Positions 5,755-39,973 of a DNA stretch of 64,000 bases are shown here, one piece after another. The notes beneath the pieces are model-generated. The model was not told where the DNA came from. It made no database searches and worked only from the letters and a program-made list of their open reading frames with translations. The stretch's first letter is position 1; every line of letters starts with the position of its first letter. The translations under genes and the position numbers were made by a program. Origin of the DNA: an uncultured delta proteobacterium (lineage in GTDB: Bacteria; Desulfobacterota; Desulfomonilia; UBA1062); NCBI GenBank assembly GCA_963752595.1, contig CAVVYZ010000014.1, positions 32,001 to 96,000 on the forward strand, read 5' to 3'.

Positions 5755-7230
5755 TTGAGGCTGAGAAGAGATCCCCGTTACCTGTCCGATCCCGATGAAT
5801 CGGGCAAAACGGTCCGGTTTCATGACTTTCAGGGCACCGAACGCACCTGTACGGTCAGGGACTTCTCAAGGACGGGGTTGTCTTTCCTTTTGCAGGACGG
5901 AAGCCTTATTTTCCGCATCGGCGACATTATCTCAGAGCTCTCTCTCTTCTCGCACAACCAGAAAGTACACTCCGATACCGCTACGATCATCCATATCCAG
6001 GACGAATACCATGACGGAAAGGTCATATCCCGGATCGGCTGCCGTTTCGAGAATGTCATGGACATCTCCACGATCATCAAGGGAGACAAGGTCACCCGGC
6101 TGAAGAACGAATACTTGGACTTTATCCAGTCCCTGGCAGTGGAAGATAATCTCGATGAAGAGTTCGTTCACCTTACCTCCCATCTCCACTATCTCCTCAC
6201 CAACTTCAGAAACAAGCTCAAGGAAGAGGAGGAAAAAATCAGCAGCGAAGAGGAGAATATCAGGAAGGCGCTTTACGATACGCTACGGTCTTTGACCTTT
6301 AATGTCATCAATGACGTTACCTTGAAATATTGCAATCAATTCACAAATCTCACTGATAAGTTTACAGATTCCAAGCAGCATTTTATCCATCGCGAATATT
6401 TCCAGAAATTGCTCAACGAATTTTTCATGACCTCGGTGTTATTCCGGAGGGCATACACAAAGCCGCTGGGATATGCCGGTGATTACGAGATGATGAATAT
6501 CACGTACCGGAACGATTTCGAAGGTGAGAATCTCTTCTCCCAGGTCATGAACAAGGTAGACTGCGAGGGATCGGCTGCAAAGGCTGTCCGGAACCGGCGC
6601 GAGTATCTGTGCCGGAAGGTCTTGTCCCTGTACGATTCCCTGCCCGAAGGCAGCACCTGCAAAATCGTCAGCGTCGCCTGCGGTCCCTGCGTGGAAATCC
6701 ATGACTTTCTCCTCGCCGTCAGGGAAAAGCAAAAGCCGGTGAAATTGGAACTCCTTGCTATGGATCAGGACACTCATGCCCTCGAGGATGCAAAGCAGCG
6801 ACTCATTCCCCTAGCCGAGACGTTAGCCGATGTCAGTATGAAATTCGCCGAGGACAATATCAAGAATCTTATTCTGGGAAGGAACAAGGAAAAAATCCAT
6901 TATTCCCATGCCGATCTTATCTATACCGCAGGACTGTGCGACTACCTGTCCCCCAATGCAGTCAGCAGGCTCATCCTTGAATTATATCGCCACCTGAAGC
7001 CGGGCGGGACACTTATTATCGGAAATTTCGGGATATACAACCCGCAGAGATTCAAGATGGAGTACGGGTCGGAATGGTTCCTGATCCACAGGAGCGAAGA
7101 AGATCTCAAGAGCCTTGCCGCCGGCCTGCCTGAGGACGTGATGATCCGCGTCGAGAAAGAACCCGAAGGCGTCAATCTGTTCCTCAATGTCACCAAACCG
7201 GCCTCTGAAATCATGACTCTCACAGAGTAA
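5755..7230 (+). CDS. PilZ domain + class I SAM methyltransferase, PhcB-like
   Basis: SD GGAGG then TTG 5755; RRDPR and DFSRTG (PilZ RxxxR / DxSxxG); RAYTKPLGYAGDYEMM, VACGP, AGLCDYL, LKPGG.LIIGNF, EWFLIHRS. Confidence 0.8.
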   Translation: MRLRRDPRYLSDPDESGKTVRFHDFQGTERTCTVRDFSRTGLSFLLQDGSLIFRIGDIISELSLFSHNQKVHSDTATIIHIQDEYHDGKVISRIGCRFENVMDISTIIKGDKVTRLKNEYLDFIQSLAVEDNLDEEFVHLTSHLHYLLTNFRNKLKEEEEKISSEEENIRKALYDTLRSLTFNVINDVTLKYCNQFTNLTDKFTDSKQHFIHREYFQKLLNEFFMTSVLFRRAYTKPLGYAGDYEMMNITYRNDFEGENLFSQVMNKVDCEGSAAKAVRNRREYLCRKVLSLYDSLPEGSTCKIVSVACGPCVEIHDFLLAVREKQKPVKLELLAMDQDTHALEDAKQRLIPLAETLADVSMKFAEDNIKNLILGRNKEKIHYSHADLIYTAGLCDYLSPNAVSRLILELYRHLKPGGTLIIGNFGIYNPQRFKMEYGSEWFLIHRSEEDLKSLAAGLPEDVMIRVEKEPEGVNLFLNVTKPASEIMTLTE

Positions 7231-7294
7231 CCTGAAAAGGCCCGGGGGGGGGTTAGCCCTCGAACCATGAGTGGTGCAAGAATACGGTTTCATG

Positions 7295-7334
7295 AAACAA
7301 AATGGTGCCGGTCCGTCACCGGCCCGGCACCATT
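7295..7334 (-). terminator. Terminator hairpin downstream of pal paralog
   Basis: AATGGTGCCGG/CCGGCACCATT stem, T-rich tail on minus strand. Confidence 0.6.
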
Positions 7335-7417
7335 CAAGCTGTGAAAAAAAGCTTTAACGGTTAAATTCTGATCATCCTATGCAAACATCAGAAGCTGAAC
7401 AATCCTGCTGGCTGTTG

Positions 7418-9715: not shown

Positions 9716-9723
9716 CTGCTCTC

Positions 9724-10717
9724 CTAGTGTGCCAGCTTCATGACGGACCGGACCTTTTCCATGGTGATTTCCGATTCGCCGGCGGCCTTGAGGTCACCTT
9801 CCCTCAAGACCTCGTCGATCAGCGCCATGTTCCCCCGGTAATATTCGATCTTTTCCCAGATGGGCTCGAACTCCCGTATGAGATTCGCCATCAGGATCTG
9901 CTTGCACTCGACGCATCCGAGGCCGGCGCTCCTGCACCCTGTCCGGATCTCCGCCCTCTTCTCCTCATCCGTGAAGTATTCGTGCAGGGGATAGAGATTG
10001 CAGTCATCGGGTTCTCCCGGATCTTTTTTCCGCATGCGCTTCGCATCGGTGAGCATCTGCATGACTTTTTCCTTGATGCTCTCCCTGGTTTCATAGATGA
10101 AAATGGCGTTGTTGTACGACTTGGACATCTTCCTGCCGTCGATGCCCAGGACCCTGGCCGCCTCGGTGAGGATCTCCTTGGGCTCCTTGAGAATGCCGCC
10201 TCCCATAAATGAAGTTGAACCTCCTCACGATCTCCCGGGTGAGTTCCAGGTGGGGGAGCTGGTCTTCGCCGATGGGCACCCTGTCCGCATGGTACAAGAC
10301 AATGTCCGCGGCCTGGAGCACCGGGTATCCCAGGAACCCGAATGTGCTCAAATCCTTTTCCTTGAGCTCCTCTTTCAATTCTTTATAGGTTGGGTTCCTC
10401 TCCAGCCAGGACAACGGCGTGATCATGGACAGGAGCACGAAGAGCTCTGCATGGCTCTTGATATCCGACTGTCTGAAGATCACGGACTGTTTCGGGTCGA
10501 TGCCTACGCTCAGCCATATGGCGACCATATTCCGGGCACTGTCCCGGATAATGGACGGGTCCCGGTATTCGCTGGTCAGGGCGTGCCAGTCTGCGATGAA
10601 ATAGAAGCACTGGTATTCCTTCTGGAGCTCCACCCAGTTTTTCAGCACACCCAAATAGTGGCCGATGTGAAGATCTCCCGTTGGCCTGATGCCGGATACG
10701 ATGCGTTTCCTCTCCAT
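9724..10717 (-). CDS. trpS: Tryptophanyl-tRNA synthetase, split by +1 indel near 10203 (likely sequencing error)
   Basis: SGIRPTGDLHIGHY, YPVLQAADI, GEDQLPHLE in one frame; KMSKS in the next; extra G in a GGG run. Confidence 0.92.
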
Positions 10718-22867: not shown

Positions 22868-23257
22868 ATGCCAGGAATCTTTGGAAAAGAATTTTCGGAA
22901 CTCACCTCGGTCATGAATTTCCGCCTGTTCCGCCAGGGGGTCATTTCCAGCAATATCGCAAATATTGACACCCCGGGATACAAGGCAAAAGAAACATCCT
23001 TTGATGAAGAACTGCAAACCCGCCTGCAGATGAGCACCACCACCCCGGAGCACATCCCTTCTCCCGACACGGCCGGAGCGATCTCCTTCCGTGTCGCGGA
23101 GGACCCGTACTCCCGCATCGGAAACGACTCCAATACGGTGGACATCGACCGCGAGATGATGAAGATCAGCCAGAATCAGCTGCTTTATGATGCATCGGCC
23201 CAGGCGGTCCAGACAAAAATTACGGCGATCAAAGAAGCCATACGAGGGATACGATAA
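22868..23257 (+). CDS. flgB: Flagellar basal-body rod protein FlgB
   Basis: SSNIANIDTPGYKA, NTVDIDREM. Confidence 0.95.
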   Translation: MPGIFGKEFSELTSVMNFRLFRQGVISSNIANIDTPGYKAKETSFDEELQTRLQMSTTTPEHIPSPDTAGAISFRVAEDPYSRIGNDSNTVDIDREMMKISQNQLLYDASAQAVQTKITAIKEAIRGIR

Positions 23258-23661
23258 TGGACCTATTCACCGCAATGGATATCAGTGCCAGCGGCATGAG
23301 GGCGCAGAGGACCCGGCTGAATGTCATCTCCTCCAATATCGCCAATGCCCACACGACGAGGACGGACAAAGGCGGCCCCTATCAGCGCAGGGACGTGATT
23401 TTCCGGGAGAACTCTTTCGAGGATCAGCTCAGCTCCGTGGAGGTCGAGTCCATCACCAGCGACCCCACGCCCGGAAAGCGCACATACGAACCGAGCAATC
23501 CCGATGCGGACGGGGAAGGATATGTGACCCTGCCCAATGTAAATCTCATGGAAGAAATGGTCAATATGATCGGAGCGACACAAGCCTTTGAGGCGAACAC
23601 CACTGCCGTCAAGGCCGAGAAGGACATGGCCCTGAAGGCAATCAGCATAGGGAGGCTGTAA
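23257..23661 (+). CDS. flgC: Flagellar basal-body rod protein FlgC
   Basis: ISASGMRAQRTRLNVISSNIANA, GPYQRR, GYVTLPNVN. Confidence 0.95.
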   Translation: MDLFTAMDISASGMRAQRTRLNVISSNIANAHTTRTDKGGPYQRRDVIFRENSFEDQLSSVEVESITSDPTPGKRTYEPSNPDADGEGYVTLPNVNLMEEMVNMIGATQAFEANTTAVKAEKDMALKAISIGRL

Positions 23662-23951
23662 TGCGTATAGAACTGTCGGATTTTCCACGCTTGAGCATCG
23701 ACCAAGGTGAACGGAGTCAAAGCAAATCGCCCAAGGAAAGCTTTGTCGATACCTTGAAGCAGGCGGTCGAAATCACGAACAAGCAGGCCAAGGAGGCTGA
23801 CCGCTCTGCACTGGAGCTTGCCAAGGGCGAGAACGGGAACATCCACGAGACAATGATCGCCATGCAGAAAGCGGATGTCAACCTCCGACTCCTGATCGCG
23901 GTGACCAACAAGCTCATTGAAGGCTATAACCAGCTTACACAACTGAGATAA
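23661..23951 (+). CDS. fliE: Flagellar hook-basal body protein FliE
   Basis: IHETMIAMQKA, NKLIEGYNQL; synteny. Confidence 0.92.
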   Translation: MRIELSDFPRLSIDQGERSQSKSPKESFVDTLKQAVEITNKQAKEADRSALELAKGENGNIHETMIAMQKADVNLRLLIAVTNKLIEGYNQLTQLR

Positions 23952-23953
23952 GT

Positions 23954-25570
23954 ATGAAAGACATTTTCTCAAACATAGCGGCATGGTTTTCCCGAACGAG
24001 CACCGTCCAGAAGCTCACCGTTTTTGGGATGCTCGGTCTGGCAATAGCCGTCATCGTCGTATCCCTCATGTGGGCTTTCGAACCCAAGTACCAGTATCTG
24101 TTCACCAATCTAGCCGAGTCGGATGCTTCGATGATAGTCCAGCACCTCAAGGAAAATCGTATCCCCTATAAACTGACCAAAGCGGGAACAGCTGTCATGA
24201 TCCCGGAGAAAAGCGTGTATGAGACAAGGCTGGACCTGGCTTCCAAAGGCCTGCCCAAGGGCGGTACCGGAGAAGGGTTTGCATTGTTCGACCAGACGGG
24301 ATTCTCCACATCCGAGTTTGTCCAGAAGATCAATTTCCAGCGTGCCCTCCAGAACGAACTCGCCAATACCATCATGTCCCTGGAGGAAGTGGACTACGCC
24401 AGGGTCCATATCGCGCTCCCCAAGGAGAGCGTCTTTATCGAAGACGAAAAGCCCGCGAAGGCCTCCATTGTCGTGAAACCGAAGCAGGGGCTGACCATAC
24501 CTCAGGGCCAGGTCCAGGGCATCGTGTATCTGGTGGCGAAGAGCGTACGGGGCCTCGACCCCGAGAACATCAGCATCGTGGATATCCGGGGCAAGGTGCT
24601 CTATGAGGGCAAGAAGGATTCGGCATCCATATCCCTTGCCAACAATTACCTCGATGTCAAGCATACCACCGAGAACGCGCTACAGGGCCGTGCCCAGGAC
24701 CTCCTGGAAAAGATCCTGGGGCCGGCGGCCGCGGTGGTAAAAGTGAGCGCGGACATCGACATGGACATGGTCAAGAGCGTCGAGGACAACTATGATCCCG
24801 AGGTCCATGTAGTCAGGAGCGAGGAGTTGAAAAATGCGTACAACGGCAGCGATACCATAAATGGCGGGATTGCCGGGACCCAGTCAAACCTGCCCACCGG
24901 CAGGGGAGGACCGGGATCCATCCCTGACAACGCCTCGGAAGGCCGGTCCAATGTCGTCCGGAACTATGAGATCGCACGGAACCAGACCGAGCGGGTCAAA
25001 TCACCGGGAAAAATCACCCGGCTGACCGTATCCGTGGTGGTTGACGGCACCTATAAGACCGATGCTAAGGGCAACAAAACCTTTTCCGCAAGGAATGCAG
25101 ATGAGCTCAAACGCATCGAAGATGCGGTGAAACAGACCGTGGGCTTCAGCGCCGACCGCGAGGATACGTTCTCCATATCCTGTATGCCCTTTACACAGGA
25201 AGGTCCGGAATTAGCGGCCCTGGCGGAGAAGGCGAAGAAAAATGAGCTCCTGGCCTCGCTTATCAAGCCTGCCGTCTTCCTCGTAACCACGCTGCTTGTC
25301 CTGCTGTTCGTTGTACGGCCTCTCATGCGGTGGCTGTCAAAGTCATTCAAGATCATCGAAAGGGGCGCTGATAAGAGAAGGGCCCTGCCGACGGCAGATG
25401 ACCTGCCCGAAATAACGGGAGAAGAGGTGCCTCAGCTGGAAGCCATCACGAAAGGAGAAGAAATAAAGCATGCCGTTCAGGGCAAGCGCAAGGTGATCGA
25501 AAAGGGCAGCAAGGATGATATGAACACTGCCACCGCGGTTGTGAAATCCTGGTTGCAGGAGAACGTCTGA
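23954..25570 (+). CDS. fliF: Flagellar M-ring protein FliF
   Basis: Two TM segments; ARVHIALPKESVF, ASIV, NYEI. Confidence 0.95.
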   Translation: MKDIFSNIAAWFSRTSTVQKLTVFGMLGLAIAVIVVSLMWAFEPKYQYLFTNLAESDASMIVQHLKENRIPYKLTKAGTAVMIPEKSVYETRLDLASKGLPKGGTGEGFALFDQTGFSTSEFVQKINFQRALQNELANTIMSLEEVDYARVHIALPKESVFIEDEKPAKASIVVKPKQGLTIPQGQVQGIVYLVAKSVRGLDPENISIVDIRGKVLYEGKKDSASISLANNYLDVKHTTENALQGRAQDLLEKILGPAAAVVKVSADIDMDMVKSVEDNYDPEVHVVRSEELKNAYNGSDTINGGIAGTQSNLPTGRGGPGSIPDNASEGRSNVVRNYEIARNQTERVKSPGKITRLTVSVVVDGTYKTDAKGNKTFSARNADELKRIEDAVKQTVGFSADREDTFSISCMPFTQEGPELAALAEKAKKNELLASLIKPAVFLVTTLLVLLFVVRPLMRWLSKSFKIIERGADKRRALPTADDLPEITGEEVPQLEAITKGEEIKHAVQGKRKVIEKGSKDDMNTATAVVKSWLQENV

Positions 25571-26586
25571 TGATAAAACTGAAAAAGATCGACGGTCCCC
25601 AGAAGGCAGCCATCTTCCTCATGGCCATGGGTGACGAATTCACCCGCAATGTGTTCAAAGGTTTGACGGATTATGAGATCAAACTGCTGGGGAAGCGCCT
25701 TGCAAACCTTGAAGATGCAACCATCCCGGTGGATGTGGTGCAGAATGTCATGGACGAGTTCTCAATGTTGAGTTCCCAGGTGAGCGGCGTCACCGGAAAG
25801 GGCATGGGCTACCTCAAGGATGCCCTTGTCTCGGCCCTGGGTGCGGATAAGGCAAAACCGATCCTGGAATCCATTTCTATGGCGACCGACACCACGGCAT
25901 TCTCATCGCTCAAAGGGGTAGACCCCCTGATCCTCGTGGACTACCTCAAAGGAGAGCACCCGCAGACCGTGGCCCTGGTGCTTGCCCATCTCGACTATGC
26001 AAAAGCCGCCCAGATCATCAAGGAACTGCCCGAGAAACTCCAGCCCGAAATCATCTTCCGGATGGCAAATCTAGGCATGGTGCCGGCAGGCGTTATCGAA
26101 GACCTCGACCAGGTTCTGCGCAAGGAGATCGAGGCCATGGGCTCCACCGAGAGCAAGAAGCTTGGGGGCGTCGAAACCGTTGCCGAGATCATGAACCAGA
26201 TGGACCATAATACCGAAAACAATATATTTTCGTTCCTAGAAGAAATGGATGCAGACCTTGCCGAAGGCATCCGCCAGAAGATGTTCGTGTTCGAAGATAT
26301 CGTCGGCATCGACAGCCGCGGCATCCAGACCATCCTCAAGGAAATCACGAATGAAGAGCTTGCCCTTGCCTTGAAGACAGCCAGCGAAAACCTGAAGAGC
26401 CTCATCCTGAAGAACATGTCCTCGCGAGCTTCCGAGATGCTCCTGGACGATATGGAAGCCATGGGGCCCGTGAAGCTTTCCGATGTAGAGAATGCGCAGC
26501 AGTCCATCGTCCGTGTGGCGAGAAAGCTTGAGGCAGGCGGCAAGATCGTCATCGGCGGAAAGGGTGGTGAGGATGTCCTCGTCTAG
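25570..26586 (+). CDS. fliG: Flagellar motor switch protein FliG
   Basis: KAAIFL, EHPQTVALVL, MFVFEDI, NMSSRA, MGPVKLSDVE. Confidence 0.96.
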   Translation: MIKLKKIDGPQKAAIFLMAMGDEFTRNVFKGLTDYEIKLLGKRLANLEDATIPVDVVQNVMDEFSMLSSQVSGVTGKGMGYLKDALVSALGADKAKPILESISMATDTTAFSSLKGVDPLILVDYLKGEHPQTVALVLAHLDYAKAAQIIKELPEKLQPEIIFRMANLGMVPAGVIEDLDQVLRKEIEAMGSTESKKLGGVETVAEIMNQMDHNTENNIFSFLEEMDADLAEGIRQKMFVFEDIVGIDSRGIQTILKEITNEELALALKTASENLKSLILKNMSSRASEMLLDDMEAMGPVKLSDVENAQQSIVRVARKLEAGGKIVIGGKGGEDVLV

Positions 26587-27226
26587 GATACTCAAGGGAG
26601 ACAAGAAGCACTCCTCCGTGACCCCCTATACCATCCAGGAGATGGAGTCCAAAACAAAGCCCGGCAAGCGGGAAGAAGCATCGAAGGATGCCGAGACCAT
26701 CATCAGAAATGCGCGGGAGATAAAAGAATCCATCGAGATGGAAGCCTACAAAGAAGGGATCCTGAAAGGTCAGGAAGAGGGCCGGAAGATGGCGATCAAG
26801 CAGATCGAGCCTCTTTTCGATACCCTGAAAAATGCCTTGGAAGAATTGTCCGATCTACGGTCCGCCATGATTGAAAAACACCAGGAGCAGATCCTTGAAA
26901 TAGTTTTCCTCATTGCAGAAAAGGCCATACACCGCCAGATTCATCTATCTCCCGACATCATCCTGGATACGGTCCGCGCAGCGAGCAGTCATCTCACCGA
27001 AACCGAAGAGATACGCATCCGCCTCCACCCTTCGGATTTCGAATACATCAGGGAAATAGAGGCGATCATCTCCAAGAAACTCACAGGGAGAAATACCATC
27101 CACGTCATTGAGGACAGCTCCATAGATCGCGGCGGATCCGTCATCGAGACCGAATTCGGTGACATCGATGCAACCGTTCGCTCCCAGATTGAACATATGA
27201 AGGAAGTGGTTATCGATCATGACTAG
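26573..27226 (+). CDS. fliH: Flagellar assembly protein FliH
   Basis: AxxxGxxxGxxxG repeat, IRLHPSD, GGSVIETEFGDIDA. Confidence 0.9.
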   Translation: MSSSRILKGDKKHSSVTPYTIQEMESKTKPGKREEASKDAETIIRNAREIKESIEMEAYKEGILKGQEEGRKMAIKQIEPLFDTLKNALEELSDLRSAMIEKHQEQILEIVFLIAEKAIHRQIHLSPDIILDTVRAASSHLTETEEIRIRLHPSDFEYIREIEAIISKKLTGRNTIHVIEDSSIDRGGSVIETEFGDIDATVRSQIEHMKEVVIDHD

Positions 27227-28538
27227 TCTCGCAAAATATGCGGCCATCCTCAAAGAGACCGATCCCATCCAGGTGCGGGGAAAGGTCACGAACATCGTGG
27301 GCCTGGTGGTCGAAGGCCACGGCCCAGGAAGTTCCATGGGCGGCATGTGCGAGATATACTCGAAGCAGATGAACACCTCCATCATGGCAGAGGTCGTGGG
27401 ATTCAGGGACAAGCGGGTTCTCCTCATGCCGCTCGGAGATTTAAGCGGCATCGGTCCGGGCAGCACCATCATAGCGAGAAAGTCGCATCCGTCCGTCAAG
27501 GTCGGCAGGGAACTCCTCGGCAGGGTAATAGACGGTATGGGCAACCCCCTTGACAGCCATGGAACGCTTATCCTCGGAGAAGAAATACCGCTGTATGGAA
27601 AGCCCATGAATCCTTTGAAAAAGAAGCGCATTACCGAGCCGCTGGACCTGGGGATTGCGGCAGTAAACGGCATCCTGACCATCGGCAAGGGACAGCGCAT
27701 GGCCATCATGGCAGGCTCCGGCGTGGGCAAGAGCGTCCTCATGGGCATGATGGCGCGCCACACCAAGGCGGATGTGAACGTGATCGCGCTCATCGGCGAA
27801 CGCGGCAGGGAGGTGAAGGAATTCATCGAAAGGGACCTGGGGGAAGAAGGGCTGAAGCGCTCCGTGGTCGTTGCGGCCATATCCGACCAGCCTGCCCTTA
27901 TCCGCGTCCGGGGAGCCTATCTTGCCACCGCCATCGCTGAATACTTCAGGGACAAAGGGCTCGACGTGCTCCTCATGATGGATTCCGTGACCCGGTTTGC
28001 CATGTCCATGAGGGAGATCGGCCTGGCAGTCGGCGAGCCTCCCACTACCAAAGGGTACACCCCTTCATGCTTCGCGAGACTGCCCAAACTCCTCGAGCGG
28101 GCCGGGAATACCGCTTCCCAGGGGAGCATTACGGGGCTCTATACCGTCCTCGTGGAAGGCGATGACATGAACGAACCCGTTGCGGACAGTGTCCGCTCGA
28201 TCGTTGACGGGCATATCGTGCTCTCCAGAGATCTTGCGGCAAGAAACCATTATCCTGCCGTCGATATCCTCAGGAGCGTAAGCAGGGTGATGAACGATAT
28301 CGTGACCAAGGATCATATGAAGATGGCCCGTAAGGTTCTGGAATACAAGGCGGTCTATGAAGAGGCGCGCGATCTCATCAATATCGGCGCCTATGTTTCG
28401 GGAAACAACCCCCAGATAGATACCGCCATCAAGCACATCGACGCCATCAATGCCTTCCTGAAGCAGGATATCGATGCAATGGTAAGCATTGAGGGGGTTT
28501 TGGGCATGATGAAAAAGATCCTGTCCGGGGCAGACTAG
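27219..28538 (+). CDS. fliI: Flagellum-specific export ATPase FliI
   Basis: AGSGVGKS, IGERGREV, MDSVTRFA, GEPPTTKGYTPS. Confidence 0.96.
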   Translation: MTSLAKYAAILKETDPIQVRGKVTNIVGLVVEGHGPGSSMGGMCEIYSKQMNTSIMAEVVGFRDKRVLLMPLGDLSGIGPGSTIIARKSHPSVKVGRELLGRVIDGMGNPLDSHGTLILGEEIPLYGKPMNPLKKKRITEPLDLGIAAVNGILTIGKGQRMAIMAGSGVGKSVLMGMMARHTKADVNVIALIGERGREVKEFIERDLGEEGLKRSVVVAAISDQPALIRVRGAYLATAIAEYFRDKGLDVLLMMDSVTRFAMSMREIGLAVGEPPTTKGYTPSCFARLPKLLERAGNTASQGSITGLYTVLVEGDDMNEPVADSVRSIVDGHIVLSRDLAARNHYPAVDILRSVSRVMNDIVTKDHMKMARKVLEYKAVYEEARDLINIGAYVSGNNPQIDTAIKHIDAINAFLKQDIDAMVSIEGVLGMMKKILSGAD

Positions 28539-28547
28539 AGGATCATT

Positions 28548-28988
28548 ATGGGATTCCGTTTCCGTTTTGAGACGCTCTCCAGAGTCAGAAAGATTCGAGA
28601 AGACTTGGCGCTGCAGGAGTTCTCCAAGGCTCAAAAGGTGCTCATCGACCTGGAAAACCTGAAAGCCGCAATTCTTTCCAGGAGGGCTTATGTATGGCAG
28701 AATCTCACAGAGAAGATGGACTCCGGAATTACGGCGCAGGAGATTATTTCCTACAATAATTACATCTTTTATCTGGAAGCCGGTATCACCGAGGCGGAAA
28801 AGCAGATCGCCCAGGCACTGAAAATAATCGAGACAAAGCGTCAGGAACTGCTCAAGGCGAAAAAGGAAGCAAAAGCCATCGAGCGCCTCAAGGAAATAGA
28901 CCTGGAACGATATACGGCGGAACAGGCGAGGCAGGAGATGAACTTCATTAATGAGATCGCAGTCCAGCGGCATGGGAGAATACAATGA
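28548..28988 (+). CDS. fliJ: Flagellar export protein FliJ
   Basis: FRFRFETL, coiled coil, follows fliI. Confidence 0.88.
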   Translation: MGFRFRFETLSRVRKIREDLALQEFSKAQKVLIDLENLKAAILSRRAYVWQNLTEKMDSGITAQEIISYNNYIFYLEAGITEAEKQIAQALKIIETKRQELLKAKKEAKAIERLKEIDLERYTAEQARQEMNFINEIAVQRHGRIQ

Positions 28989-29614
28989 CCGGAAAAAAAA
29001 TCCTTTTTATCGCGATAATAGTGAATCTCTTTTTCCTTGGAATATATTTTTCCATCGATCCCCTTTCCGCGGCGGAAGAAAAGCAATCTCAGAGCGCTGC
29101 CAAGAAAGAATCCGCCCAGGATACCAGGGCTGCATGGGACTCTCTCAGGCAGCGGGAAGAACTTTTGAGGATCAGGCAGCAGGAATTGAATGAGCTGGAG
29201 AAGCGGATCGATGAGAAGATCAGGCGTCTCTCGGTGCTCGAAGCATCCATCAAGGTCGAACTCAGCTCGTACAAGCAAGTGAGCGATGAGCGAGTCAAGC
29301 ACCTCGTCAAGATCTATTCCTCCATGAAGCCGAACGCGGCAGCTAATCTCATGAACCAGATAGACCTCGAAGTGGCCACAGAGGTTTTCCTCAACATGAA
29401 GGGCGAGATAGCAGGCGGAATCCTCTCCTACATGGATACCCAGAAGGCCGCAGCCATCACCAAGAGGCTCATGAGCAACCGCAGGAGACAAGCTTCCGGA
29501 CCTTCTGCTCCCGAACCGGTACCTGCCCCGGCACCGGCACCCACCTGCAGCGGCAACCCAGCCCCAGCAGCAGTAATATTCCGGTATCCTCGTATCCAGC
29601 GAGAAGTTGGATAA
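28985..29614 (+). CDS. MotE/FlbB-like (MgtE_N domain) flagellar protein
   Basis: N-terminal TM, coiled coil, LVKIYSSMKPNAAA, ILSYMDTQKAAAIT; Pro/Ala tail may be frameshifted. Confidence 0.8.
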   Translation: MTGKKILFIAIIVNLFFLGIYFSIDPLSAAEEKQSQSAAKKESAQDTRAAWDSLRQREELLRIRQQELNELEKRIDEKIRRLSVLEASIKVELSSYKQVSDERVKHLVKIYSSMKPNAAANLMNQIDLEVATEVFLNMKGEIAGGILSYMDTQKAAAITKRLMSNRRRQASGPSAPEPVPAPAPAPTCSGNPAPAAVIFRYPRIQREVG

Positions 29615-29780: not shown

Positions 29781-31529
29781 TTATGACGATGTGGTTACTT
29801 GCTGTTGCTGTGCTGTAGCGAGGTCTCTGAACATTTCCTCTCGGATGCTGCGGAAATCCGCCTCATGAGCTATGAATGCATCCACCACCTCGGGATCGAA
29901 ATGACTGCCCCGGTCTTCCACGATGATCTCCAGGGCCTTTTCGTGCGAGAATGCCTCTTTGTAGACCCGCTTGGAGGTAAGGGCATCATACACATCCGCA
30001 AGGGCTACGATCCTGGCGGATAAGGGGATCTGGTCACCCTTGAGCCCCTTGGGATACCCGGTGCCGTCCCATTTCTCGTGGTGGTAATAGGCGATCTCCT
30101 TTCCCAGACTCAGGAAGGACTGGCCTTCGAGCTTCGTTTCGACCGCCCTGAGTGCATCTCCTCCCAGGGACGAGTGACGTTTGACCACCTCGAACTCATC
30201 CGTGGTCAGACGGCTCGGCTTCAGCAGGATGGAGTCCGGAATCCCCACCTTCCCGATATCGTGGAGGATGGACGAATTATAGATATCATCGATATAATCC
30301 TGGGTGATATACGCTGCAAACTTCGGTTTCTCGGACAACTCCTGCGCCAGGACTCTTGAGTATTCACGTATGCGCTCAAGATGGGCGCCCGTGTCTGCAT
30401 CCCGGTATTCTGCGAGTTTCGCGAGACCCAGAATCGTTGCATTCCTGGCGCTCTGGACCTTCTTATATGACTCGAGCAGATCACTCTCCAGCTTCTTGCG
30501 CACAGTGATATCCCTGATCACCATTTGGAAGCCGACGAGATCTGTTTCCTTGTAGATGCACTTGGCATTGCACTCAACTTCAAAGACCCTTCCCAGACGG
30601 TTTACGATCCTGAACTGGAAATCCTTTACCGTCTGTTCTGTCGGCAGACGATCGAACATCCGCTCCACAAGGCTGGTATCCGACCCCTTCACGAGGTTCA
30701 TGAAGCTGAAATCAAGCTTCTGGCCGGAAGGAATGCCGATCGTATCATAAAACCGGGGGTTGGCCATGAGGATCTTCGAATGCCTGTCCACGAGGATGAC
30801 GATATCGATGATATTCTCGTAGAGCTCCCGGTAACGGAGCTCGGATTCCTTGAGCTCGATGACGCGTTTTTCCACCTCGGCCTCTAGGTTGTGAGCGTAG
30901 TAGGAAAGGCGCTCTGCAAGTGCATCCATCTCTGTTTTGAGCTTACATTCCCGTCTCCTTACTTTTGTCTCTTCAAACGCCTGCAGGGTCGTTATTACGA
31001 TGAAAAAGACAAAGAAGAAACTATTGCTGAAGAATATTTTCAGGCTGTTCGGATCGGGAGCGTTGAGCATGATTATGGGCAAGGCATAGATAAGGTAAAG
31101 CATAAACCCGAAGAGAAGAGCCTGCGGAGCATTTATGGGTAAGATGACGATAGTGACGAGGACCATGATGAGTCCGACGTAATAAAACGACGAATAGCCG
31201 CCCATTTTTACGCACATCATGGAGATGGTGAAGGCCGCAATGATATATGCAACGGTCACCAGTGCAAATGCATTGTTTTTGCCGTACCTTGTATAATAAC
31301 CGAGCAGCAAAGCCAGGAGCGCTCCGGAACAGGCAATGCGGTAGAAAAAAAAGAGGGTAAAATACTCCCGGACTACCACATAATCCAGGACACTGAAGAA
31401 CGGGATGAGGATGATTCCCACCAGGAGGATCGCCAGTACGCGCTGGTACAATAGATCCCTGGTCTCTTCGCCGTATCTGCGTTCGTATTCTTCTAAAATC
31501 AACAGCATACCATCTATCACTATCGACAA
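29781..31529 (-). CDS. Membrane sensor-PAS-HD-GYP c-di-GMP phosphodiesterase
   Basis: 5-6 TM N-terminus; PAS (YRELYEN...VIRDIT); HDIGK, HHEKWDGTGYP, DVYDAL; exact start uncertain. Confidence 0.9.
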   Translation of the reverse strand: MSIVIDGMLLILEEYERRYGEETRDLLYQRVLAILLVGIILIPFFSVLDYVVVREYFTLFFFYRIACSGALLALLLGYYTRYGKNNAFALVTVAYIIAAFTISMMCVKMGGYSSFYYVGLIMVLVTIVILPINAPQALLFGFMLYLIYALPIIMLNAPDPNSLKIFFSNSFFFVFFIVITTLQAFEETKVRRRECKLKTEMDALAERLSYYAHNLEAEVEKRVIELKESELRYRELYENIIDIVILVDRHSKILMANPRFYDTIGIPSGQKLDFSFMNLVKGSDTSLVERMFDRLPTEQTVKDFQFRIVNRLGRVFEVECNAKCIYKETDLVGFQMVIRDITVRKKLESDLLESYKKVQSARNATILGLAKLAEYRDADTGAHLERIREYSRVLAQELSEKPKFAAYITQDYIDDIYNSSILHDIGKVGIPDSILLKPSRLTTDEFEVVKRHSSLGGDALRAVETKLEGQSFLSLGKEIAYYHHEKWDGTGYPKGLKGDQIPLSARIVALADVYDALTSKRVYKEAFSHEKALEIIVEDRGSHFDPEVVDAFIAHEADFRSIREEMFRDLATAQQQQVTTSS

Positions 31530-31654
31530 TCGGGAGTGACAAAATTAATAGATTTACATGACTGAAGGATCTGCTTTCGTTACGTGAGCCGGCTTCGATC
31601 AAAACCGCTTTTAGAGCAGACGGCCGCTGCGTGAGCGGCGTAAACCAAAAGCCG

Positions 31655-32557
31655 TCAAAGGATTTTCAAGCAGTCTCCAAAGGGCGTATCGGCCGAAAAG
31701 TCGGGCGTATAGTTCGCCGTAGAATCTATTTCCTGGGCGTATATCGTAACAAATCTTAAATCGATGGCCTTTTCCAGAACCACTTCATATTCTTCAGGTG
31801 ATATTGTCCGGCCCATTTCGGGGATAGTGCCCGAGTAGAAGCAGGGGTTGTACTGGGACATGATACTCACGGGGATATCAAGCGAGAGTCCGGCCAGAAA
31901 TTCGAGCACGGCAAAAGGATTCGAGCGCATGCCGGGAAGTACGAGATGCCGCACGATAAGTCCTGACAGGCCTTTGCCGTTATCATCAACACGCAAGGAA
32001 CCGGCCTTTTCCCAAAGGTATGTAATGGCCTCCCGTGCGCGGTCCCAGTAATCGGTTACGCGGCTTAAACCCTTTCCCGTTTCATTATCCCCATACTTCA
32101 GGTCCATGAGGAAAAGGTCCGCGTATCCCTCCCATTCCTTAAGGCTCTCGATGCTCTCGTACCCGCTTGAATTGAGCACGATTGGAAGATCAAGCCCCTG
32201 CTCACGGGCAAGGTTTATAGAATGAATGATCTTGGGCGCGAAGTGGGTCGGACTCACCAGGTTGATATTCGAGCACCCGCGATCCTGGAGAAGAAGCATG
32301 GAGCGGGCAAGCTCCGACTCGGACAGAACTTTTCCCATAGCCTGGTGGCTTATCTGGTTGTTCTGGCAATAGGAACACTTGAGCGGGCACCCGGAAAAGA
32401 ACACCGCCCCTGAGCCCGCACCCGTTACCAGTGGCGGCTCCTCCCCCCTGTGGATGACGATGGAGCCGATGATCAGATCCTCACCGACGCCGCAGGCGAC
32501 TGCAGCCCTCGACCTGTCGGCGGAACAGTGCCTCGGACAAAGCATGCACCCTGTCAT
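31655..32557 (-). CDS. PflX-like radical SAM protein
   Basis: CMLCPRHC, GEEPPL, FFSGCPLKCSYCQN, NINLVSPTH, IVRHLVLPG. Confidence 0.9.
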   Translation of the reverse strand: MTGCMLCPRHCSADRSRAAVACGVGEDLIIGSIVIHRGEEPPLVTGAGSGAVFFSGCPLKCSYCQNNQISHQAMGKVLSESELARSMLLLQDRGCSNINLVSPTHFAPKIIHSINLAREQGLDLPIVLNSSGYESIESLKEWEGYADLFLMDLKYGDNETGKGLSRVTDYWDRAREAITYLWEKAGSLRVDDNGKGLSGLIVRHLVLPGMRSNPFAVLEFLAGLSLDIPVSIMSQYNPCFYSGTIPEMGRTISPEEYEVVLEKAIDLRFVTIYAQEIDSTANYTPDFSADTPFGDCLKIL

Positions 32558-34041
32558 TTTTTCTGCTCGATCTCCTCGATAAGGGCCTTGCCGTTCTCAT
32601 CCCTCAAGATCCGGGAAACGAACTCCACCTTGCGGGGTGTCTTATAGGAAGCCAGGAGTCTGCGGGCCTGGCGCTTCACTTCGCTTTCACTGATATCGGA
32701 GCCGTCGGTCACAACGTATGCCTTGATGATGGCCCCCCTCATGAGATCGGGAATACCCGTGATGGCGGAATCCTGAACGCCCGGGATCGAATTCAGGACA
32801 TTCTCCACCTCTTTGCAGTATACATTGAAGCCTGAGGTGATGATCATATCCTTCTTGTACCCGGTTATGTAGATATAGCCGTCTCCGTCCATATACCCCA
32901 GATCTCCGGTATAGAGCCAGCCGTCTTTGATGATCTCCCGCGTCTCTTTCTCCCTCTTGTAGTATCCCTTCATGATATTGGGACCCTTGAACAGGATTTC
33001 TCCCTTCTCGCCGGCTTTGAGCACCCTGCCCTCTTCGTCGACTATCATCGCCTGAACACCCGGCACGGTGGGTCCTATGGAATCGGGTTTCAATTTCACG
33101 TGGGGATTGTTGTATGCGCACACGGGCGAAGCCTCTGTGAGTCCGTATCCTTGCCTGAGATCCATACCGAAACGTTCTTTGAACCCGGTATAGATCTCCA
33201 TGGAGAGCGCGGAACCGCCGGCTATAAGGATCTTCATCTTCGTGTAGTCGATGCCCTGGACATCCGGATGGAGCAGCAGCCCGTAAAACAGGGTCGGGAC
33301 AGCACAGATGCAGGTGATCCCGCCATGAGTGAGTACATGGTTGAGCTCCTTGAAGTCGAGATTCTTCACCATGTAGGCCGTCCCGCCGTATCGCAGCATG
33401 GAAAGCATGTTGACGCTCGAGCTGAACGAGTGGAAGCATGGGATAATGGTCAGCGTGGTGTCCGTATCGTCGGCATCGGCGCACACCCTCATCAGGTCGG
33501 AATTGTGATCCAGATTCCCGTGGGTAAGCATGGCCCCCATGGGATACCCGGTGAGGCCCGAAGAGTAGATCATGGCTGCCACATCGTCCCGGTCCATATC
33601 CTCGATGATGCCCTTATTCTTTCCGCTCACCCACTGGGAGAAGTTCCCCCCATCACCTGTGGTGATCACCGTACTGAGCGGGCACAGCTCGCGGATATCT
33701 CCATACGTCGCGAAATTATTCTCTTCGATGATAATCGCCTTTGAGTCGGAATCCTTCAGGATATGGGCAAGCTCCCGGGAAGTGAACGACGGGTTCACCG
33801 GCACTACGATCCCCCCTATGCCGGCAACTGCCATGTAAGAGATGGCAAACTCCGGCGTATTGGGCAGTACGACCGTCACATGATCGCCCCGCTCTATCCC
33901 TGCATCCCGCAAGGCTGTGCCCAGCTTCCCTGTCAGCGAAAACAGCTCGGAATACGTTGTCCTGCTTTCGCGGAACCGTACCGCTATCTTCTCAGGTCTT
34001 TCTTTCGCATGATCCCTTAACCACCAATAGATATTCATCAT
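32554..34041 (-). CDS. Long-chain acyl-CoA ligase family protein with altered motifs
   Basis: YSSGLTGYPMG, QGYGLTEASP, GWLYTGDLG. Confidence 0.88.
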   Translation of the reverse strand: MMNIYWWLRDHAKERPEKIAVRFRESRTTYSELFSLTGKLGTALRDAGIERGDHVTVVLPNTPEFAISYMAVAGIGGIVVPVNPSFTSRELAHILKDSDSKAIIIEENNFATYGDIRELCPLSTVITTGDGGNFSQWVSGKNKGIIEDMDRDDVAAMIYSSGLTGYPMGAMLTHGNLDHNSDLMRVCADADDTDTTLTIIPCFHSFSSSVNMLSMLRYGGTAYMVKNLDFKELNHVLTHGGITCICAVPTLFYGLLLHPDVQGIDYTKMKILIAGGSALSMEIYTGFKERFGMDLRQGYGLTEASPVCAYNNPHVKLKPDSIGPTVPGVQAMIVDEEGRVLKAGEKGEILFKGPNIMKGYYKREKETREIIKDGWLYTGDLGYMDGDGYIYITGYKKDMIITSGFNVYCKEVENVLNSIPGVQDSAITGIPDLMRGAIIKAYVVTDGSDISESEVKRQARRLLASYKTPRKVEFVSRILRDENGKALIEEIEQKK

Positions 34042-35648
34042 ACCTCCTGTTTCTTTTCCCTCAACAGGTCTTTTTGGGCACCGTACATATCCAGAGGAAG
34101 TAGGGATCCGGCAAGCTCCCTGATCCGTTCCGGTTCAACAGCACCCTTTTCCAGGATTATTCCGCTTATGAATTGTGGCCTGGTCCTGTCGAAATAAAGA
34201 TTCCCCACCTCAACTCCGTGCGGGGGATTTTCCCATACCTCATCCGGATCGTACTCTTCGAGTGCCACCTCGCCCCGTGCAAAGCTTATTTTCCTGATTT
34301 CGCCGACAAAGTATACCTTGATTCCCAGGGTATGCGCTGCCACGGCGATCAGTGACGACCCTGCCTTATTGATAACAGACCCATCCGGCTCGATGCTGTC
34401 CACACCCATGAGCACCATGTCCACAGAGGGAAGCTCGTGGCCCGCACAGGCATCGGTGATAAGTCTGACCTTCAGTCCCATCTCGGCTGCCACATGCGCC
34501 GTAGTCCTTCCTTCAAAGCCCGGCCGCGATTCAGTCACGATCAGGGAGCACTGCTTTTCCTTGAGCAGGGGAAACGCATGGATCAGTGAAGAGCTGTACG
34601 AGTGGAGCAGGACAGTCGATCTCTCCGGTATTATCCGGTCGAGATGCTCCACCGCCTTGTCCAGAGCAGCATCCATCTCCTTGAGGTGCTTCGCTATGAG
34701 CGAGGCGATCTGAGACCTCGCCCCCGCGATGTCCAGGGAACTGAAGGTCTGCATATCCCGGAGCAGGAAGTCGAGCGAGGTCGAGATGATGCCCATGGAC
34801 GGACGGGACATGCTTATTTCACGGCATGCATAAAAAAGATCGTCCAGGAGCGTTACGGCCCGAGCGGCATTCGATGCCCGGACCATTCTTCCCAGGAAAT
34901 CGATTGCTTCCGTTGCGAGCTGCCTGGCCCCGCTTTCGCGGTCGTCTTTCACGGCTTTCACAAAGGCCGAGAGCTCACGCTCCAGCGGCAGTCTCGATAC
35001 ACGCTCGTACACTTCCCAGAGGCCTGGTACCGTATCGAGCTCCTTCATCTCCCGGGGATCGCCCCAGCGGAGCTCGGTATTCTCCCAGTCCAGGGTAATC
35101 CGGGAAGGATCGTGTACCTCACAGAGGAACGGGTGCACGCACCAGATGCGTGCATTCTTCTCATCAGGGATTACTACGGTCCCGGCCTGACGCAGGAGAA
35201 CGTATTCTCCGGGCTTCAGAGAGGTCTCTTCCCACAGCTCGACCATGAAGTGCTCTTGCGGGTCGCCTTCGAGGTGCCCGCTGATCCCTGACCAGCGCCC
35301 CTTGTATGTCCCCACCTTCTCGCTCCGCCGCACAAGGCACAACTTCCCCATATGCGACAGGAATACCGTGACAACGTGTGTCTGAACGTCTTTCACGGAT
35401 TTCATATCGGGATCGTACTTATAGCAGTCGAACGGTTCATCCGAGCCTTTCTGGAGCTTTCTGTTCGTTTCGCAGAAGACCTTCAATCCGGAGTCGTCTT
35501 TCTTTTTACACAGCTCACAGAAAGCTGAAGCATTGAGCACAAGGTCTTCCTTGAGCTCGTATTTCCGGAACCGGGGGCATTGGAGACAATCCTCGATCGG
35601 CCCCTTGTTCAGCCTGCACCACGCACAAACAGCACCTCTGAAATCCAT
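34038..35648 (-). CDS. Cys-rich domain + Nudix + eIF2B-alpha/R15P-isomerase-like fusion
   Basis: CAWC/CLQC/CELC; WSGISGHLE...ELWEETSL, LDWEN; SGARQLA, RPSM, ESRPGFEG, GVDSI, NKAGS, YFD; start chosen from promoter position. Confidence 0.82.
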   Translation of the reverse strand: MDFRGAVCAWCRLNKGPIEDCLQCPRFRKYELKEDLVLNASAFCELCKKKDDSGLKVFCETNRKLQKGSDEPFDCYKYDPDMKSVKDVQTHVVTVFLSHMGKLCLVRRSEKVGTYKGRWSGISGHLEGDPQEHFMVELWEETSLKPGEYVLLRQAGTVVIPDEKNARIWCVHPFLCEVHDPSRITLDWENTELRWGDPREMKELDTVPGLWEVYERVSRLPLERELSAFVKAVKDDRESGARQLATEAIDFLGRMVRASNAARAVTLLDDLFYACREISMSRPSMGIISTSLDFLLRDMQTFSSLDIAGARSQIASLIAKHLKEMDAALDKAVEHLDRIIPERSTVLLHSYSSSLIHAFPLLKEKQCSLIVTESRPGFEGRTTAHVAAEMGLKVRLITDACAGHELPSVDMVLMGVDSIEPDGSVINKAGSSLIAVAAHTLGIKVYFVGEIRKISFARGEVALEEYDPDEVWENPPHGVEVGNLYFDRTRPQFISGIILEKGAVEPERIRELAGSLLPLDMYGAQKDLLREKKQEV

Positions 35649-35801
35649 GGCGGATACCATACTGTGAGTTTTTTTAAAGGGCAAGTATATAAATTCCTGC
35701 AGGAGAGGCCCTATGCCGGGGGTCATGGCAAAGGTTACCGGTCGGTTTCCATCATACGATCAAGTGACCTCATAATGACAGGGACTGACGAAAGATCTGT
35801 C

Positions 35802-38084: not shown

Positions 38085-38168
38085 GATGCCGGACTATAAG
38101 CGCTAGTGCAGGCAGGTGTCAATCCCAATAGTGATTTCGTATACCCGGTTGTTCGGCCTTCAGCCTGA

Positions 38169-38996
38169 TCAGGCCTGCCTCTTCCTCAAGACCTCGCGCT
38201 GCCGCCTGAAGAGATAGCGGATGATGTCTTCCCTTGTTTCGGCATCCACCTGGAGAAACCTGGCTGCGACGGCATAGCGCTGAGTTTCGTAAGAAGTGAC
38301 GGGTTTCAGGCGGATGACCTCACCCACGAGCCTCATGAAGAGCAGCGGCGCCATGGGCAGGATGAGATTGATCTCCAGGAGGTCGCCCGCCCGGAACGAT
38401 TCCCTGGTAATGAACCTGATGCCCGAGGCACTGATATTCACATCCCTGGGCGAGGTTTTCATTAATGTCATGAAATCCTCTGCCAGGTACATGTGGATGA
38501 GCAGGTCGACCTTCCGGTTCAGCTCCCAGAGTGACTGATTGAACGACGGCTCCCGTGAATAGGGCGCCTCATTGGATCCGGTATGGCCGTACTTTCCCTT
38601 CAGAAAAGAATCGATGATGAGTTTATTGCCCCTGATCCTTTCCATGGTTTCCGGCAACACCTCGGATTTCTTGTCGGAATGACAGAGAAACCCGGCTTGG
38701 AAGTAGATCCTGTCATAGATACGGACATCCTGCCTGCGCTCGTTGCCGGGAGATGCATAGCACTCGATGCTCATCCTGATGCCGCCTTCGGTGATCTCCA
38801 TGACCCTGGCAAGCACGGAATCCTGGCCGTCAGAGAGCCTCACCAGCGTTCCTTCCGAGGCATCCAGGCCTGATCTCGGCGAGAAGACGAACAGGTCTTC
38901 ATCGATGATTTCGACCACATCCCCCGGTACTTTACTTCCTCCTGATACCTGGGCATGGATGCCCAATTTCAAATTGAGCAGGAGATCGATGTTCAT
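38169..38996 (-). CDS. PilZ-domain protein
   Basis: ERRQDVR and NISASG motifs; REDIIRYLFRRQRE tail; ATGA overlap with upstream DGC. Confidence 0.85.
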   Translation of the reverse strand: MNIDLLLNLKLGIHAQVSGGSKVPGDVVEIIDEDLFVFSPRSGLDASEGTLVRLSDGQDSVLARVMEITEGGIRMSIECYASPGNERRQDVRIYDRIYFQAGFLCHSDKKSEVLPETMERIRGNKLIIDSFLKGKYGHTGSNEAPYSREPSFNQSLWELNRKVDLLIHMYLAEDFMTLMKTSPRDVNISASGIRFITRESFRAGDLLEINLILPMAPLLFMRLVGEVIRLKPVTSYETQRYAVAARFLQVDAETREDIIRYLFRRQREVLRKRQA

Positions 38997-39973
38997 GAAA
39001 TGCCTTTCATTATTTCAACCCGGTTCCGCCCGCGTTTCTTTGCCAGATAAAGACCCTTGTCGGCTTGCTTGACCAGGTCGCAGGTTGCAAGACCCTCTTT
39101 ATACTCGCTGATCCCGATGCTGATGGTAATATGCAGGCCGGCGATAAACCCTGTCTTCTCGATAATGCACCGGATCCTTTCCGCCAGCTTTCCGGCCTTC
39201 TGGATGCCCGTATGGGGGAGTATGATGGCGAACTCCTCTCCTCCGTACCGGAATACACGATCGCTTTTCCGGACGCACCGGGTAATCCTGTTCGCGAGCG
39301 ATTTGAGCACCACGTCTCCGATCTGATGGCCGTAGCTGTCGTTGATCTTCTTGAACCAGTCGACATCGACCATCATGACGGAAAACGCTGTCTGGTACCT
39401 CTGGGCCCTGTCCTGTTCGGCATGAAGCATCTCCTCGAATGCACGGTAATTGAGCAGGCCCGTGAGCCCGTCCCGGTATGCCATGTGGAGGAGCATCTCA
39501 TGATCCATGAGCTTGACAACTGCCGGCGTCAAGATTTTGACCCATTCCCGAAAGATTCCGTCATGGATTCCTGAGTTTATCGACAGGACAACCTTGGTGA
39601 TGGGGGTATCCATAAGAAGCATATCCATGCGGTTCCGGATAAGCGGAGGATGTCCTCCTACCGTGACAGGGATGTAGCTGAAGTGCCGGCTCCCCAAGAC
39701 CCTCCCGGCATCGTCAGGCCCGTCCCGGAGCCGGTCGAGCACCGAATATGCCTGCGCCTGGGACCCGCACATGGTGACGTAAAACGCAGGCGCAGCCTGA
39801 GGGAATGTCTGCCCCATCAGGGATACGAGATCGATCATCGCATTATTCAGGGAAGGACTTGAGAGCAGAGAAACGATGCTCTCGGTGAAGAGCGCAAGCG
39901 ACCTGTTCTGAGATAAATCATCCGGGATAAAGCTTTCTTTGCTGCGTATTCTTCTCGCTTCCCTGGTAATCAT
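38993..39973 (-). CDS. Diguanylate cyclase (GGEEF)
   Basis: DGLTGLLN, DVDWFKKINDSYGH, I-site RKSD, RYGGEEF; SD GAGGAGG. Confidence 0.93.
   Translation of the reverse strand: MITREARRIRSKESFIPDDLSQNRSLALFTESIVSLLSSPSLNNAMIDLVSLMGQTFPQAAPAFYVTMCGSQAQAYSVLDRLRDGPDDAGRVLGSRHFSYIPVTVGGHPPLIRNRMDMLLMDTPITKVVLSINSGIHDGIFREWVKILTPAVVKLMDHEMLLHMAYRDGLTGLLNYRAFEEMLHAEQDRAQRYQTAFSVMMVDVDWFKKINDSYGHQIGDVVLKSLANRITRCVRKSDRVFRYGGEEFAIILPHTGIQKAGKLAERIRCIIEKTGFIAGLHITISIGISEYKEGLATCDLVKQADKGLYLAKKRGRNRVEIMKGIS

Follow-up and report, generated by a model that had tools for sequence, protein, structure and literature searches.

A candidate signal synthase and sensor-phosphodiesterase pair related to PhcB and PhcS flanks a flagellar operon in a Desulfomonilia genome

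The two module genes and their kinship to PhcB and PhcS

The stretch of DNA analysed here (64,000 nucleotides, hereafter called the window) is part of contig CAVVYZ010000014.1 in assembly GCA_963752595.1 of an uncultured delta proteobacterium and carries two genes, 22.5 kb apart, that flank a flagellar operon. One of them encodes a methyltransferase related to PhcB, the enzyme behind a fatty-acid methyl ester signal of Ralstonia and Cupriavidus, while the other encodes a PhcS-like membrane sensor fused to a phosphodiesterase domain predicted to degrade cyclic di-guanosine monophosphate (c-di-GMP). We refer to them as the module genes. The genome is 84% complete, and the host is probably an anaerobe because close homologues of the module proteins are classed by their sources as Desulfomonilia or Deltaproteobacteria. 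The features at the locus are as follows:

5690..5717, plus strand: predicted sigma-28 (FliA)-type promoter of the methyltransferase gene, TAAA-N16-ACCGATCC
5755..7230, plus strand: PhcB-family S-adenosylmethionine (SAM) methyltransferase with a PilZ barrel, 491 amino acids (aa), TTG start with a GGAGG site
22868..29614, plus strand: flagellar operon flgB-flgC-fliE-fliF-fliG-fliH-fliI-fliJ-motE-like, the context between the module genes, kept where the module is lost
29781..31508, minus strand: PhcS-like membrane sensor (Pfam MASE8)-PAS-HD-GYP protein, predicted c-di-GMP phosphodiesterase, 575 aa from the ATG at 31508
31520..31548, minus strand: predicted sigma-28-type promoter of the HD-GYP gene, TTAA-N17-GTCGATAG, ending 11 nucleotides (nt) before the ATG

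The PilZ-methyltransferase of the original prediction is present at 5755-7230. A PilZ barrel (residues ca. 1-100) is followed in it by a bundle of helices and by a SAM methyltransferase fold of class I that carries a KPLGYAGD motif. Its structural model (predicted local distance difference test, pLDDT, 90) places the beta-barrel at residues 18-98, followed by the helical bundle and the Rossmann-type fold, and the top structural matches are methyltransferase-type folds throughout; no sequence match to a solved structure reached E 0.001 or better. Residues 19-476 align with the product of the first gene in a synthase-kinase-regulator-regulator operon on a Paraburkholderia plasmid (25% identity, E 1e-42). 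The homology to PhcB-type proteins is full-length with conserved KPxGYAGD, GCGP and GLxDY motifs, of which KPxGYAGD is invariant among homologues. In a tree of the catalytic domain, the methyltransferase joins the Burkholderiales PhcB clade with a support of 0.90, and source databases label its close homologues as [quoted passage not shown] Judged by sequence, it is a full-length PhcB homologue. Distant homologues of the PhcB-like methyltransferase are found on 126 Rhizobium plasmid records, and on Enterobacter ludwigii plasmids a PhcB-like methyltransferase domain lies inside a gene annotated as a type I polyketide synthase.

The reference for these comparisons comprised the best 80 of 329 Phc-type loci from Paraburkholderia, Cupriavidus, Ralstonia, and relatives, at 79 of which a membrane-domain match adjoins the synthase while the 80th reaches a contig edge. 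Their synthase-kinase-regulator-regulator gene order and, for some, their Ralstonia or Cupriavidus origin fit PhcB orthology. When 11 loci were compared with a published phcB primer pair, the forward primer fitted best at gene position 511 in seven of them, yet with 6-9 mismatches, and the reverse primer fell inside the gene in none. Profiles built solely from Burkholderiales proteins (78 sensor domains and 79 synthases) single out the two module open reading frames (ORFs) alone in the genome. The methyltransferase is the sole significant match of the synthase profile (E 3e-44; runner-up E 2.4), and the HD-GYP protein ranks first of 32,204 genome ORFs with the membrane-domain profile (E 7e-15; runner-up 0.012). 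The resemblance to PhcB and PhcS on which the original prediction had been built was therefore found as homology in pairwise and in profile searches.

The membrane domain of the HD-GYP protein, with around six hydrophobic segments, matches the N-terminus of the kinase from the same Paraburkholderia plasmid operon (27% identity, E 4e-10) and full-length PhcS-like kinases of Ralstonia (E ca. 1e-15). None of 500 locally shuffled copies exceeded 13.9 bits compared to 59.5 for the real domain, and this control together with the genome-wide profile search rules out a spurious match. Precomputed annotation on most homologues identifies the domain as MASE8 (PF20968), which is also the best Atlas cluster (score 0.96); our local Pfam scan of the protein gave matches to PAS and HD_5 and none to MASE8. 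The model of the domain (pLDDT 88) consists of helices joined by very short loops; its fold weakly resembles those of ImcA and of adenylyl cyclases 9 and 5 (TM-score 0.63-0.69, with no match reaching E 0.001).

As the original prediction had it, the gene for this membrane sensor-PAS-HD-GYP protein lies on the minus strand, convergent on the flagellar operon. The gene and its end at 29781 stand, while the start that had been placed at a TTG (31529) is most likely the ATG at 31508 because the TTG overlaps the conserved -10 box of the promoter and because most recorded full-length homologues measure 565-582 aa. Among 72 close homologues, 65 are full-length, and all 65 keep the metal ligands of the phosphodiesterase site that are also present here (N-terminal Glu motif, HD, and HHExxDGxGYP). 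The specificity motif RxYK, found here too, is kept in 63 of the 65. In HD-GYP domains, RxxK goes with c-di-GMP and RxxQ/N with a preference for cyclic GMP-AMP (10.1101/2021.11.05.467447), so that specificity for cyclic GMP-AMP is not favoured.

The PilZ motifs of the methyltransferase are complete (RxxxR at residues 4-8, DxSxxG at 36-41), the Pfam PilZ match is over the cut-off, and the motifs are in register with those of VCA0042 in a weak match (E ca. 0.05). The barrel is spanned by 85 of 90 close homologues, with DxSxxG in 84 and R8 in 80 of these 85; both motifs are complete in 29 of the 85 and in 17 of the 27 distant homologues that span it. DxSxxG occurs in none of 79 Burkholderiales synthases, although a profile comparison matches the N-terminus of Burkholderiales PhcB to the barrel (probability 89%, E 2e-6), which makes the barrel common to the whole family; other members carry a cyclic nucleoside monophosphate (cNMP)-binding domain in place of PilZ. 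The fusion of PilZ and methyltransferase that the original prediction had pointed out is thus real and has complete motifs, though it is less special than it seemed: PhcB has a motif-less version of the same barrel, which rules out a new architecture. As far as the motifs tell, what is distinctive here is the retained c-di-GMP binding signature and not the barrel itself.

Predicted sigma-28 promoters and joint loss of the module genes

Both module genes are preceded, at a conserved fixed distance, by a predicted TAAA-N15-17-GCCGATAA-type promoter that fits the sigma-28 consensus. For the methyltransferase gene, 16 genomes were compared: 12 score for TAAA-N16-NCCGAT at 32-37 nt upstream of the start, and a TAAAG-N15-GCCGT variant is visible by eye in the remaining four. 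Upstream of the HD-GYP gene, all 21 distinct genomes have a box like GCCGATAG, preceded at 15-17 nt by TAAA-like bases, and the box lies 10-11 nt before the ATG that corresponds to 31508 in 20 of them, the window's own site being a weaker match than in most orthologues. A site of the same geometry with a short leader precedes flgL in five of five genomes, and the genome encodes FliA. As a background, 87 of 3,981 long reading frames have a sigma-28-like site near their start. The module genes are therefore predicted from their upstream sequences to be members of the sigma-28 regulon, which lends new support to the link with flagella in the original prediction.

Other flagellar genes of the locus and of relatives show different elements. 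A sigma-54-type TGGTA-N6-TTGCT lies before flgB (ca. 22826-22841) and was seen by eye in 10 upstream regions, while a scripted scan was silent on it. In this assembly, flgL was found and no flagellin. Four flagellin leaders from relatives (L169-L172) share TGATC-N-GATC and CCAAGGA(T/A)GG elements ahead of the start, the latter of which we take to resemble CsrA sites, and the upstream regions gave no sigma-28 or sigma-54 pattern within 600 nt.

Across a family sample of 52 genomes, this one included, the methyltransferase is present in 40 and an orthologue of the sensor-phosphodiesterase in 33 (31 recognised by the membrane domain, G103 by the PAS-HD part, and G076 by the C-terminal piece that a contig edge leaves of it). 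All 33 genomes with the sensor-phosphodiesterase also have the methyltransferase, and none of the 12 genomes without the methyltransferase has the sensor-phosphodiesterase. This dependence of the sensor-phosphodiesterase on the methyltransferase is one-way: seven genomes have the enzyme without the orthologue, and in four of them (G071, G088, G089, and G095) its slot lies at or past a contig edge.

The most informative genomes are G083, G086, G097, and G106, which fall on four branches of a 24-genome tree, with G106 and G083 each sister to a genome that bears both module genes. All four keep fliG and the flagellar operon, which rules out for these genomes that the co-occurrence is a by-product of flagellar loss, and in all of them scpB is joined to mog at the slot of the enzyme. 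The slot of the phosphodiesterase is cleanly empty in G086 and G097, with the radical-SAM gene next to it (see below) joined to motE; in G106 a relic of ca. 135 bp of the 3' end is left, and in G083 this place is rearranged. The lineage of G086 may have lost the phosphodiesterase before the enzyme, in an ancestor common with G087. The sensor profile found no match in these four genomes or in the four genomes of genus g6, and a single distant match came from G099, which lacks the region altogether. The g6 genomes (one clade with a degenerate flagellar block) and G085, G099, G114, and G117, in which the region is partly or wholly missing, say nothing about independence and were left aside. In genus g6 (G077-G080; L130, L133, L134, and L135), FliG matches only over residues ca. 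100-338 within frames of 556-570 aa, FliF is incomplete, and no fliH, fliI, fliJ, or flgB/C was seen at the flagellar place.

A wider view comes from a phylum sample of 301 genomes, for each of which some first-look candidates were scored and among which kin are not independent. The enzyme family is present in 27 of the 301, the sensor family in 45, and both in 25, i.e., the sensor domain occurs in 25 of 27 methyltransferase genomes and in 20 of 274 others. The original prediction had called for co-occurrence of the two architectures across genomes, and it is apparent at both scales. Outside the window's own family, 20 of 23 enzyme genes lie within ca. 3 kb of a sensor gene, and the outputs at 19 of these 20 sensor-linked loci are 12 histidine kinases, four HD-GYP, two GGDEF, and one SpoIIE-type domain. 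The nearest outside relatives of the window's sensor domain are PAS-HD-GYP sensors of G352 and G295 (support 0.96), each directly downstream of a cNMP-type enzyme, and in two family genomes a GGDEF protein bears a paralogous sensor domain. Given the HD-GYP and GGDEF outputs and these paralogues, the sensor family has been wired to c-di-GMP enzymes recurrently. In G314 (L179:3625-6183), sensor, PAS, GGDEF, and methyltransferase are combined in a single frame of 852 aa, either as a true fusion or through a lost stop codon; its congener G225 has two genes instead.

These data bear on a quite improbable alternative that sees in the module genes two unconnected accessories of the late flagellar programme under FliA, with a protein as the substrate of the enzyme, as for CheR, and a joint loss that reflects nothing other than a common regulon. 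The sigma-28-like promoters on both genes would fit it, as would a Pfam CheR match of the methyltransferase above the cut-off (E 3e-7), the distance between the genes, and the three genomes that keep the enzyme without the phosphodiesterase. However, the whole-length PhcB homology with its invariant KPxGYAGD motif far exceeds the CheR match, and the alternative leaves unexplained both why the genome's single PhcS-like domain sits on precisely this phosphodiesterase and why 20 of 23 outside homologues adjoin the same sensor family.

Neighbouring genes under other control

Further genes of the window had been drawn into the circuit by the original prediction and are listed here together with a radical-SAM gene that lies beside them:

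31655-32557: radical-SAM gene between the HD-GYP gene and the ligase gene
32554..34041, minus strand: acyl-CoA ligase-like gene, a neighbour for which membership in the module is not supported
38169-38996, minus strand: PilZ protein gene, following the cyclase gene under the same sigma-54-type promoter
38993-39973, minus strand: diguanylate cyclase (GGDEF) gene with GGEEF and an RxxD site
40027-40042, minus strand: sigma-54-type -24/-12 promoter, found before 13 of 13 orthologues examined

The ligase had been placed just upstream of the HD-GYP gene, whereas the radical-SAM gene intervenes and the HD-GYP gene has its own predicted promoter. RpfC/RpfG and RpfB are components of signalling by the diffusible signal factor (DSF) family, and the original prediction had likened the ligase to RpfB and counted in the sigma-54 cyclase-PilZ pair. 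In the full form of this circuit, the ligase would supply or destroy the acyl signal and the pair would be a dedicated counter-arm, which is highly improbable. It could draw on the conserved gene order, in which a single gene separates the ligase from the HD-GYP gene downstream, and on the cyclase-PilZ genes, which do exist as described and have GGEEF, an RxxD site, and a conserved sigma-54-type promoter. However, the ligase is kept after module loss in all three genomes with a readable slot, G086, G097, and G106, together with the radical-SAM gene, and the cyclase-PilZ pair is kept in G086 and G106. The PilZ gene of this pair occurs in 48 of the 52 genomes of the family, and 10 of the 12 that have no methyltransferase are among them. 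This retention where both module genes are lost rules out the ligase as an RpfB-like part and the cyclase-PilZ pair as a dedicated one; instead, both are conserved neighbours under other control. Moreover, no sigma-28-like site is conserved across 21 upstream regions of the ligase, which has many AMP-binding paralogues in the genome and passed no NCBIfam cut-off among its best 25 matches. Where acyl-CoA ligases usually have the loop TSGTTGxPKG, it reads YSSGLTGYPMG; the PMG form is found in 16 of 21 orthologous stretches, and the pattern is unmatched in the other five. An RpfF-type synthase was not found among the 53 window ORFs scanned, the remaining genome being outside this search.

Elsewhere in the window, 34038-35726 encodes a NUDIX domain fused to an eIF-2B-like (sugar-phosphate isomerase-like) domain, of which several relatives retain no more than a short matching piece at the corresponding position. 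Genes at 9724-10717, 10836-11312, 13892-15493, 16116-16586, and 17459-18037 are broken or out of frame: trpS is split across two frames, and an M50 peptidase, thiC, a pseudouridine synthase, and a receiver-type gene stop early or shift frame. This looks like indel errors in the assembly; both module genes are intact.

A proposed signalling circuit and its relation to known systems

The kinship to PhcB and PhcS and the conserved predicted sigma-28 promoters on both module genes together make a circuit around a self-made signal that is tied to motility likely. With a probability of roughly 0.6, we interpret the methyltransferase and the membrane-PAS-HD-GYP protein as a signal-synthase/receptor pair in which c-di-GMP breakdown replaces the phosphorelay. 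The predicted promoters make it quite probable that FliA would turn both genes on late in flagellar assembly. By analogy with PhcB, the enzyme would then probably use SAM to methylate a small lipophilic acceptor, likeliest a hydroxy-fatty-acyl chain, into a diffusible methyl ester, though at 25% identity the exact product may differ from that of PhcB. With comparable odds, this product would bind within the membrane domain and alter HD-GYP activity via a helical linker and the PAS domain; the signal may activate the phosphodiesterase so that c-di-GMP falls and swimming is favoured, a sign that is close to a coin toss. Finally, and at slightly less than even odds, c-di-GMP might bind the PilZ barrel of the synthase, tune signal output, and close a feedback loop. 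In our single best model, c-di-GMP would promote signal synthesis and the signal would activate the phosphodiesterase, giving a negative loop that favours swimming, and both feedback signs are guesses by analogy with DSF receptors (PMC7154725). The nearby diguanylate cyclase may feed the same c-di-GMP pool.

Taken to its full extent, this would be a closed, sigma-28-controlled quorum loop in anaerobic Desulfomonilia, with a c-di-GMP-gated PhcB-type synthase, a new lipid methyl ester, and a MASE8-PAS-HD-GYP reader, which we consider conceivable but rather doubtful. If it held, MASE8 would be a receptor family for PhcB-type signals, and Phc would be a widespread modular family whose Ralstonia form has lost its second-messenger gating.

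An unlikely alternative retains the coupled pair and makes the product a cell-bound lipid or metabolite that is sensed in the same membrane and reports the cell's own c-di-GMP, SAM, or acyl state instead of the density of the population. The genomic evidence demonstrates coupling, not diffusion; the weak fold resemblance of the sensor model to the membrane domains of ImcA and adenylyl cyclases, the PilZ or cNMP-binding domains on the enzyme family, and the union of sensor, GGDEF, and enzyme in one reading frame of G314 would all suit an internal relay. On the other hand, the family's sole characterised member makes an extracellular signal (PMC7694676), and it is the Burkholderiales PhcB clade with which the enzyme groups in the tree.

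Several observations weigh against a signal-synthase/receptor pair, or against parts of it. The identity of the methyltransferase to PhcB-like proteins is only 22-25%, orthologues from Ralstonia, Cupriavidus, and Paraburkholderia stood in for the experimentally studied PhcB and PhcS, and a 2026 review calls signal perception by PhcS in Ralstonia itself unresolved (PMC13532016). Of the 85 close homologues, 29 have R and 34 have K at residue 4, the first arginine of the PilZ motifs, counts that may be affected by entries clipped at the N-terminus. None of four flagellin genes from relatives has a sigma-28-like site within 600 nt. G087, G096, and G098 truly lost the HD-GYP gene yet keep the methyltransferase; in G087, as in G084, the enzyme has a more distant kinase of the sensor family as its direct neighbour, and G096 has a more distant sensor-family member elsewhere, but G098 (86% complete) shows none. 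In the phylum sample, 20 of 45 sensor-bearing genomes have no enzyme. The trees of enzyme and sensor correlate over 27 pairs (mirror-tree rho 0.43, p 0.0005), which we do not count as support, and agree weakly over the 15 pairs left without 12 close kin (rho 0.20, p 0.08); since they fail to mirror each other once close kin are dropped, synthase and sensor partners have probably been exchanged. Lastly, the joint loss could partly stem from a common regulon.

The Phc system (phcBSRQ) of Ralstonia and Cupriavidus uses methyl 3-hydroxymyristate or methyl 3-hydroxypalmitate as its signal, which is made by PhcB and sensed by PhcS (PMC7694676), and a 2018 study found the system intact in these two genera alone (PMC5995829). 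The window shares with it the full-length PhcB-type methyltransferase and the PhcS-type membrane domain. It differs in that the sensor has an HD-GYP output without a histidine kinase or a neighbouring PhcR/PhcQ-type regulator, that the genes are split by 22.5 kb under predicted sigma-28 control, and that the synthase has intact PilZ motifs instead of the motif-less barrel of its Burkholderiales homologues. With a PAS-HD-GYP sensor in place of a kinase and no operon, this is therefore not the Phc system proper, though it would work like it.

In DSF signalling, RpfF is the synthase and RpfR a one-component c-di-GMP phosphodiesterase (PMC7154725). The logic is alike in that a fatty-acid-type signal would set c-di-GMP breakdown, whereas the synthase is a methyltransferase here and an enoyl-CoA hydratase-type enzyme there, reception would fall to a MASE8 membrane domain fused to HD-GYP, and the nearby ligase is not tied to the module. 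With six-helix receptors such as CqsS and the anchors of adenylyl cyclases (PMC4821796), the sensor shares a six-helix membrane domain with short loops, a likeness of fold whose weak matches, to ImcA and adenylyl cyclases, are above E 0.001.

The literature that we searched, with most subscription papers and supplements outside its scope, held no description of a PhcB-PilZ/MASE8-HD-GYP variant and no ligand or PhcS link for MASE8; the co-loss, the conserved promoters, and the phylum census are new here. The module would suggest a ligand class for MASE8, and a one-component receptor whose read-out is enzymatic would allow direct in vitro tests of how the membrane domain senses a ligand. It also points to a signal synthase under second-messenger control and to cell-to-cell signalling chemistry in probably anaerobic bacteria that are known here from assembled genomes alone. 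A precedent for its place in motility control exists in E. coli, where FliA controls the phosphodiesterase PdeH and the PilZ protein YcgR. Here, too, a phosphodiesterase and a PilZ protein would be under (predicted) sigma-28 control, with the difference that the PilZ domain is part of an enzyme and that a membrane sensor is fused to the phosphodiesterase.

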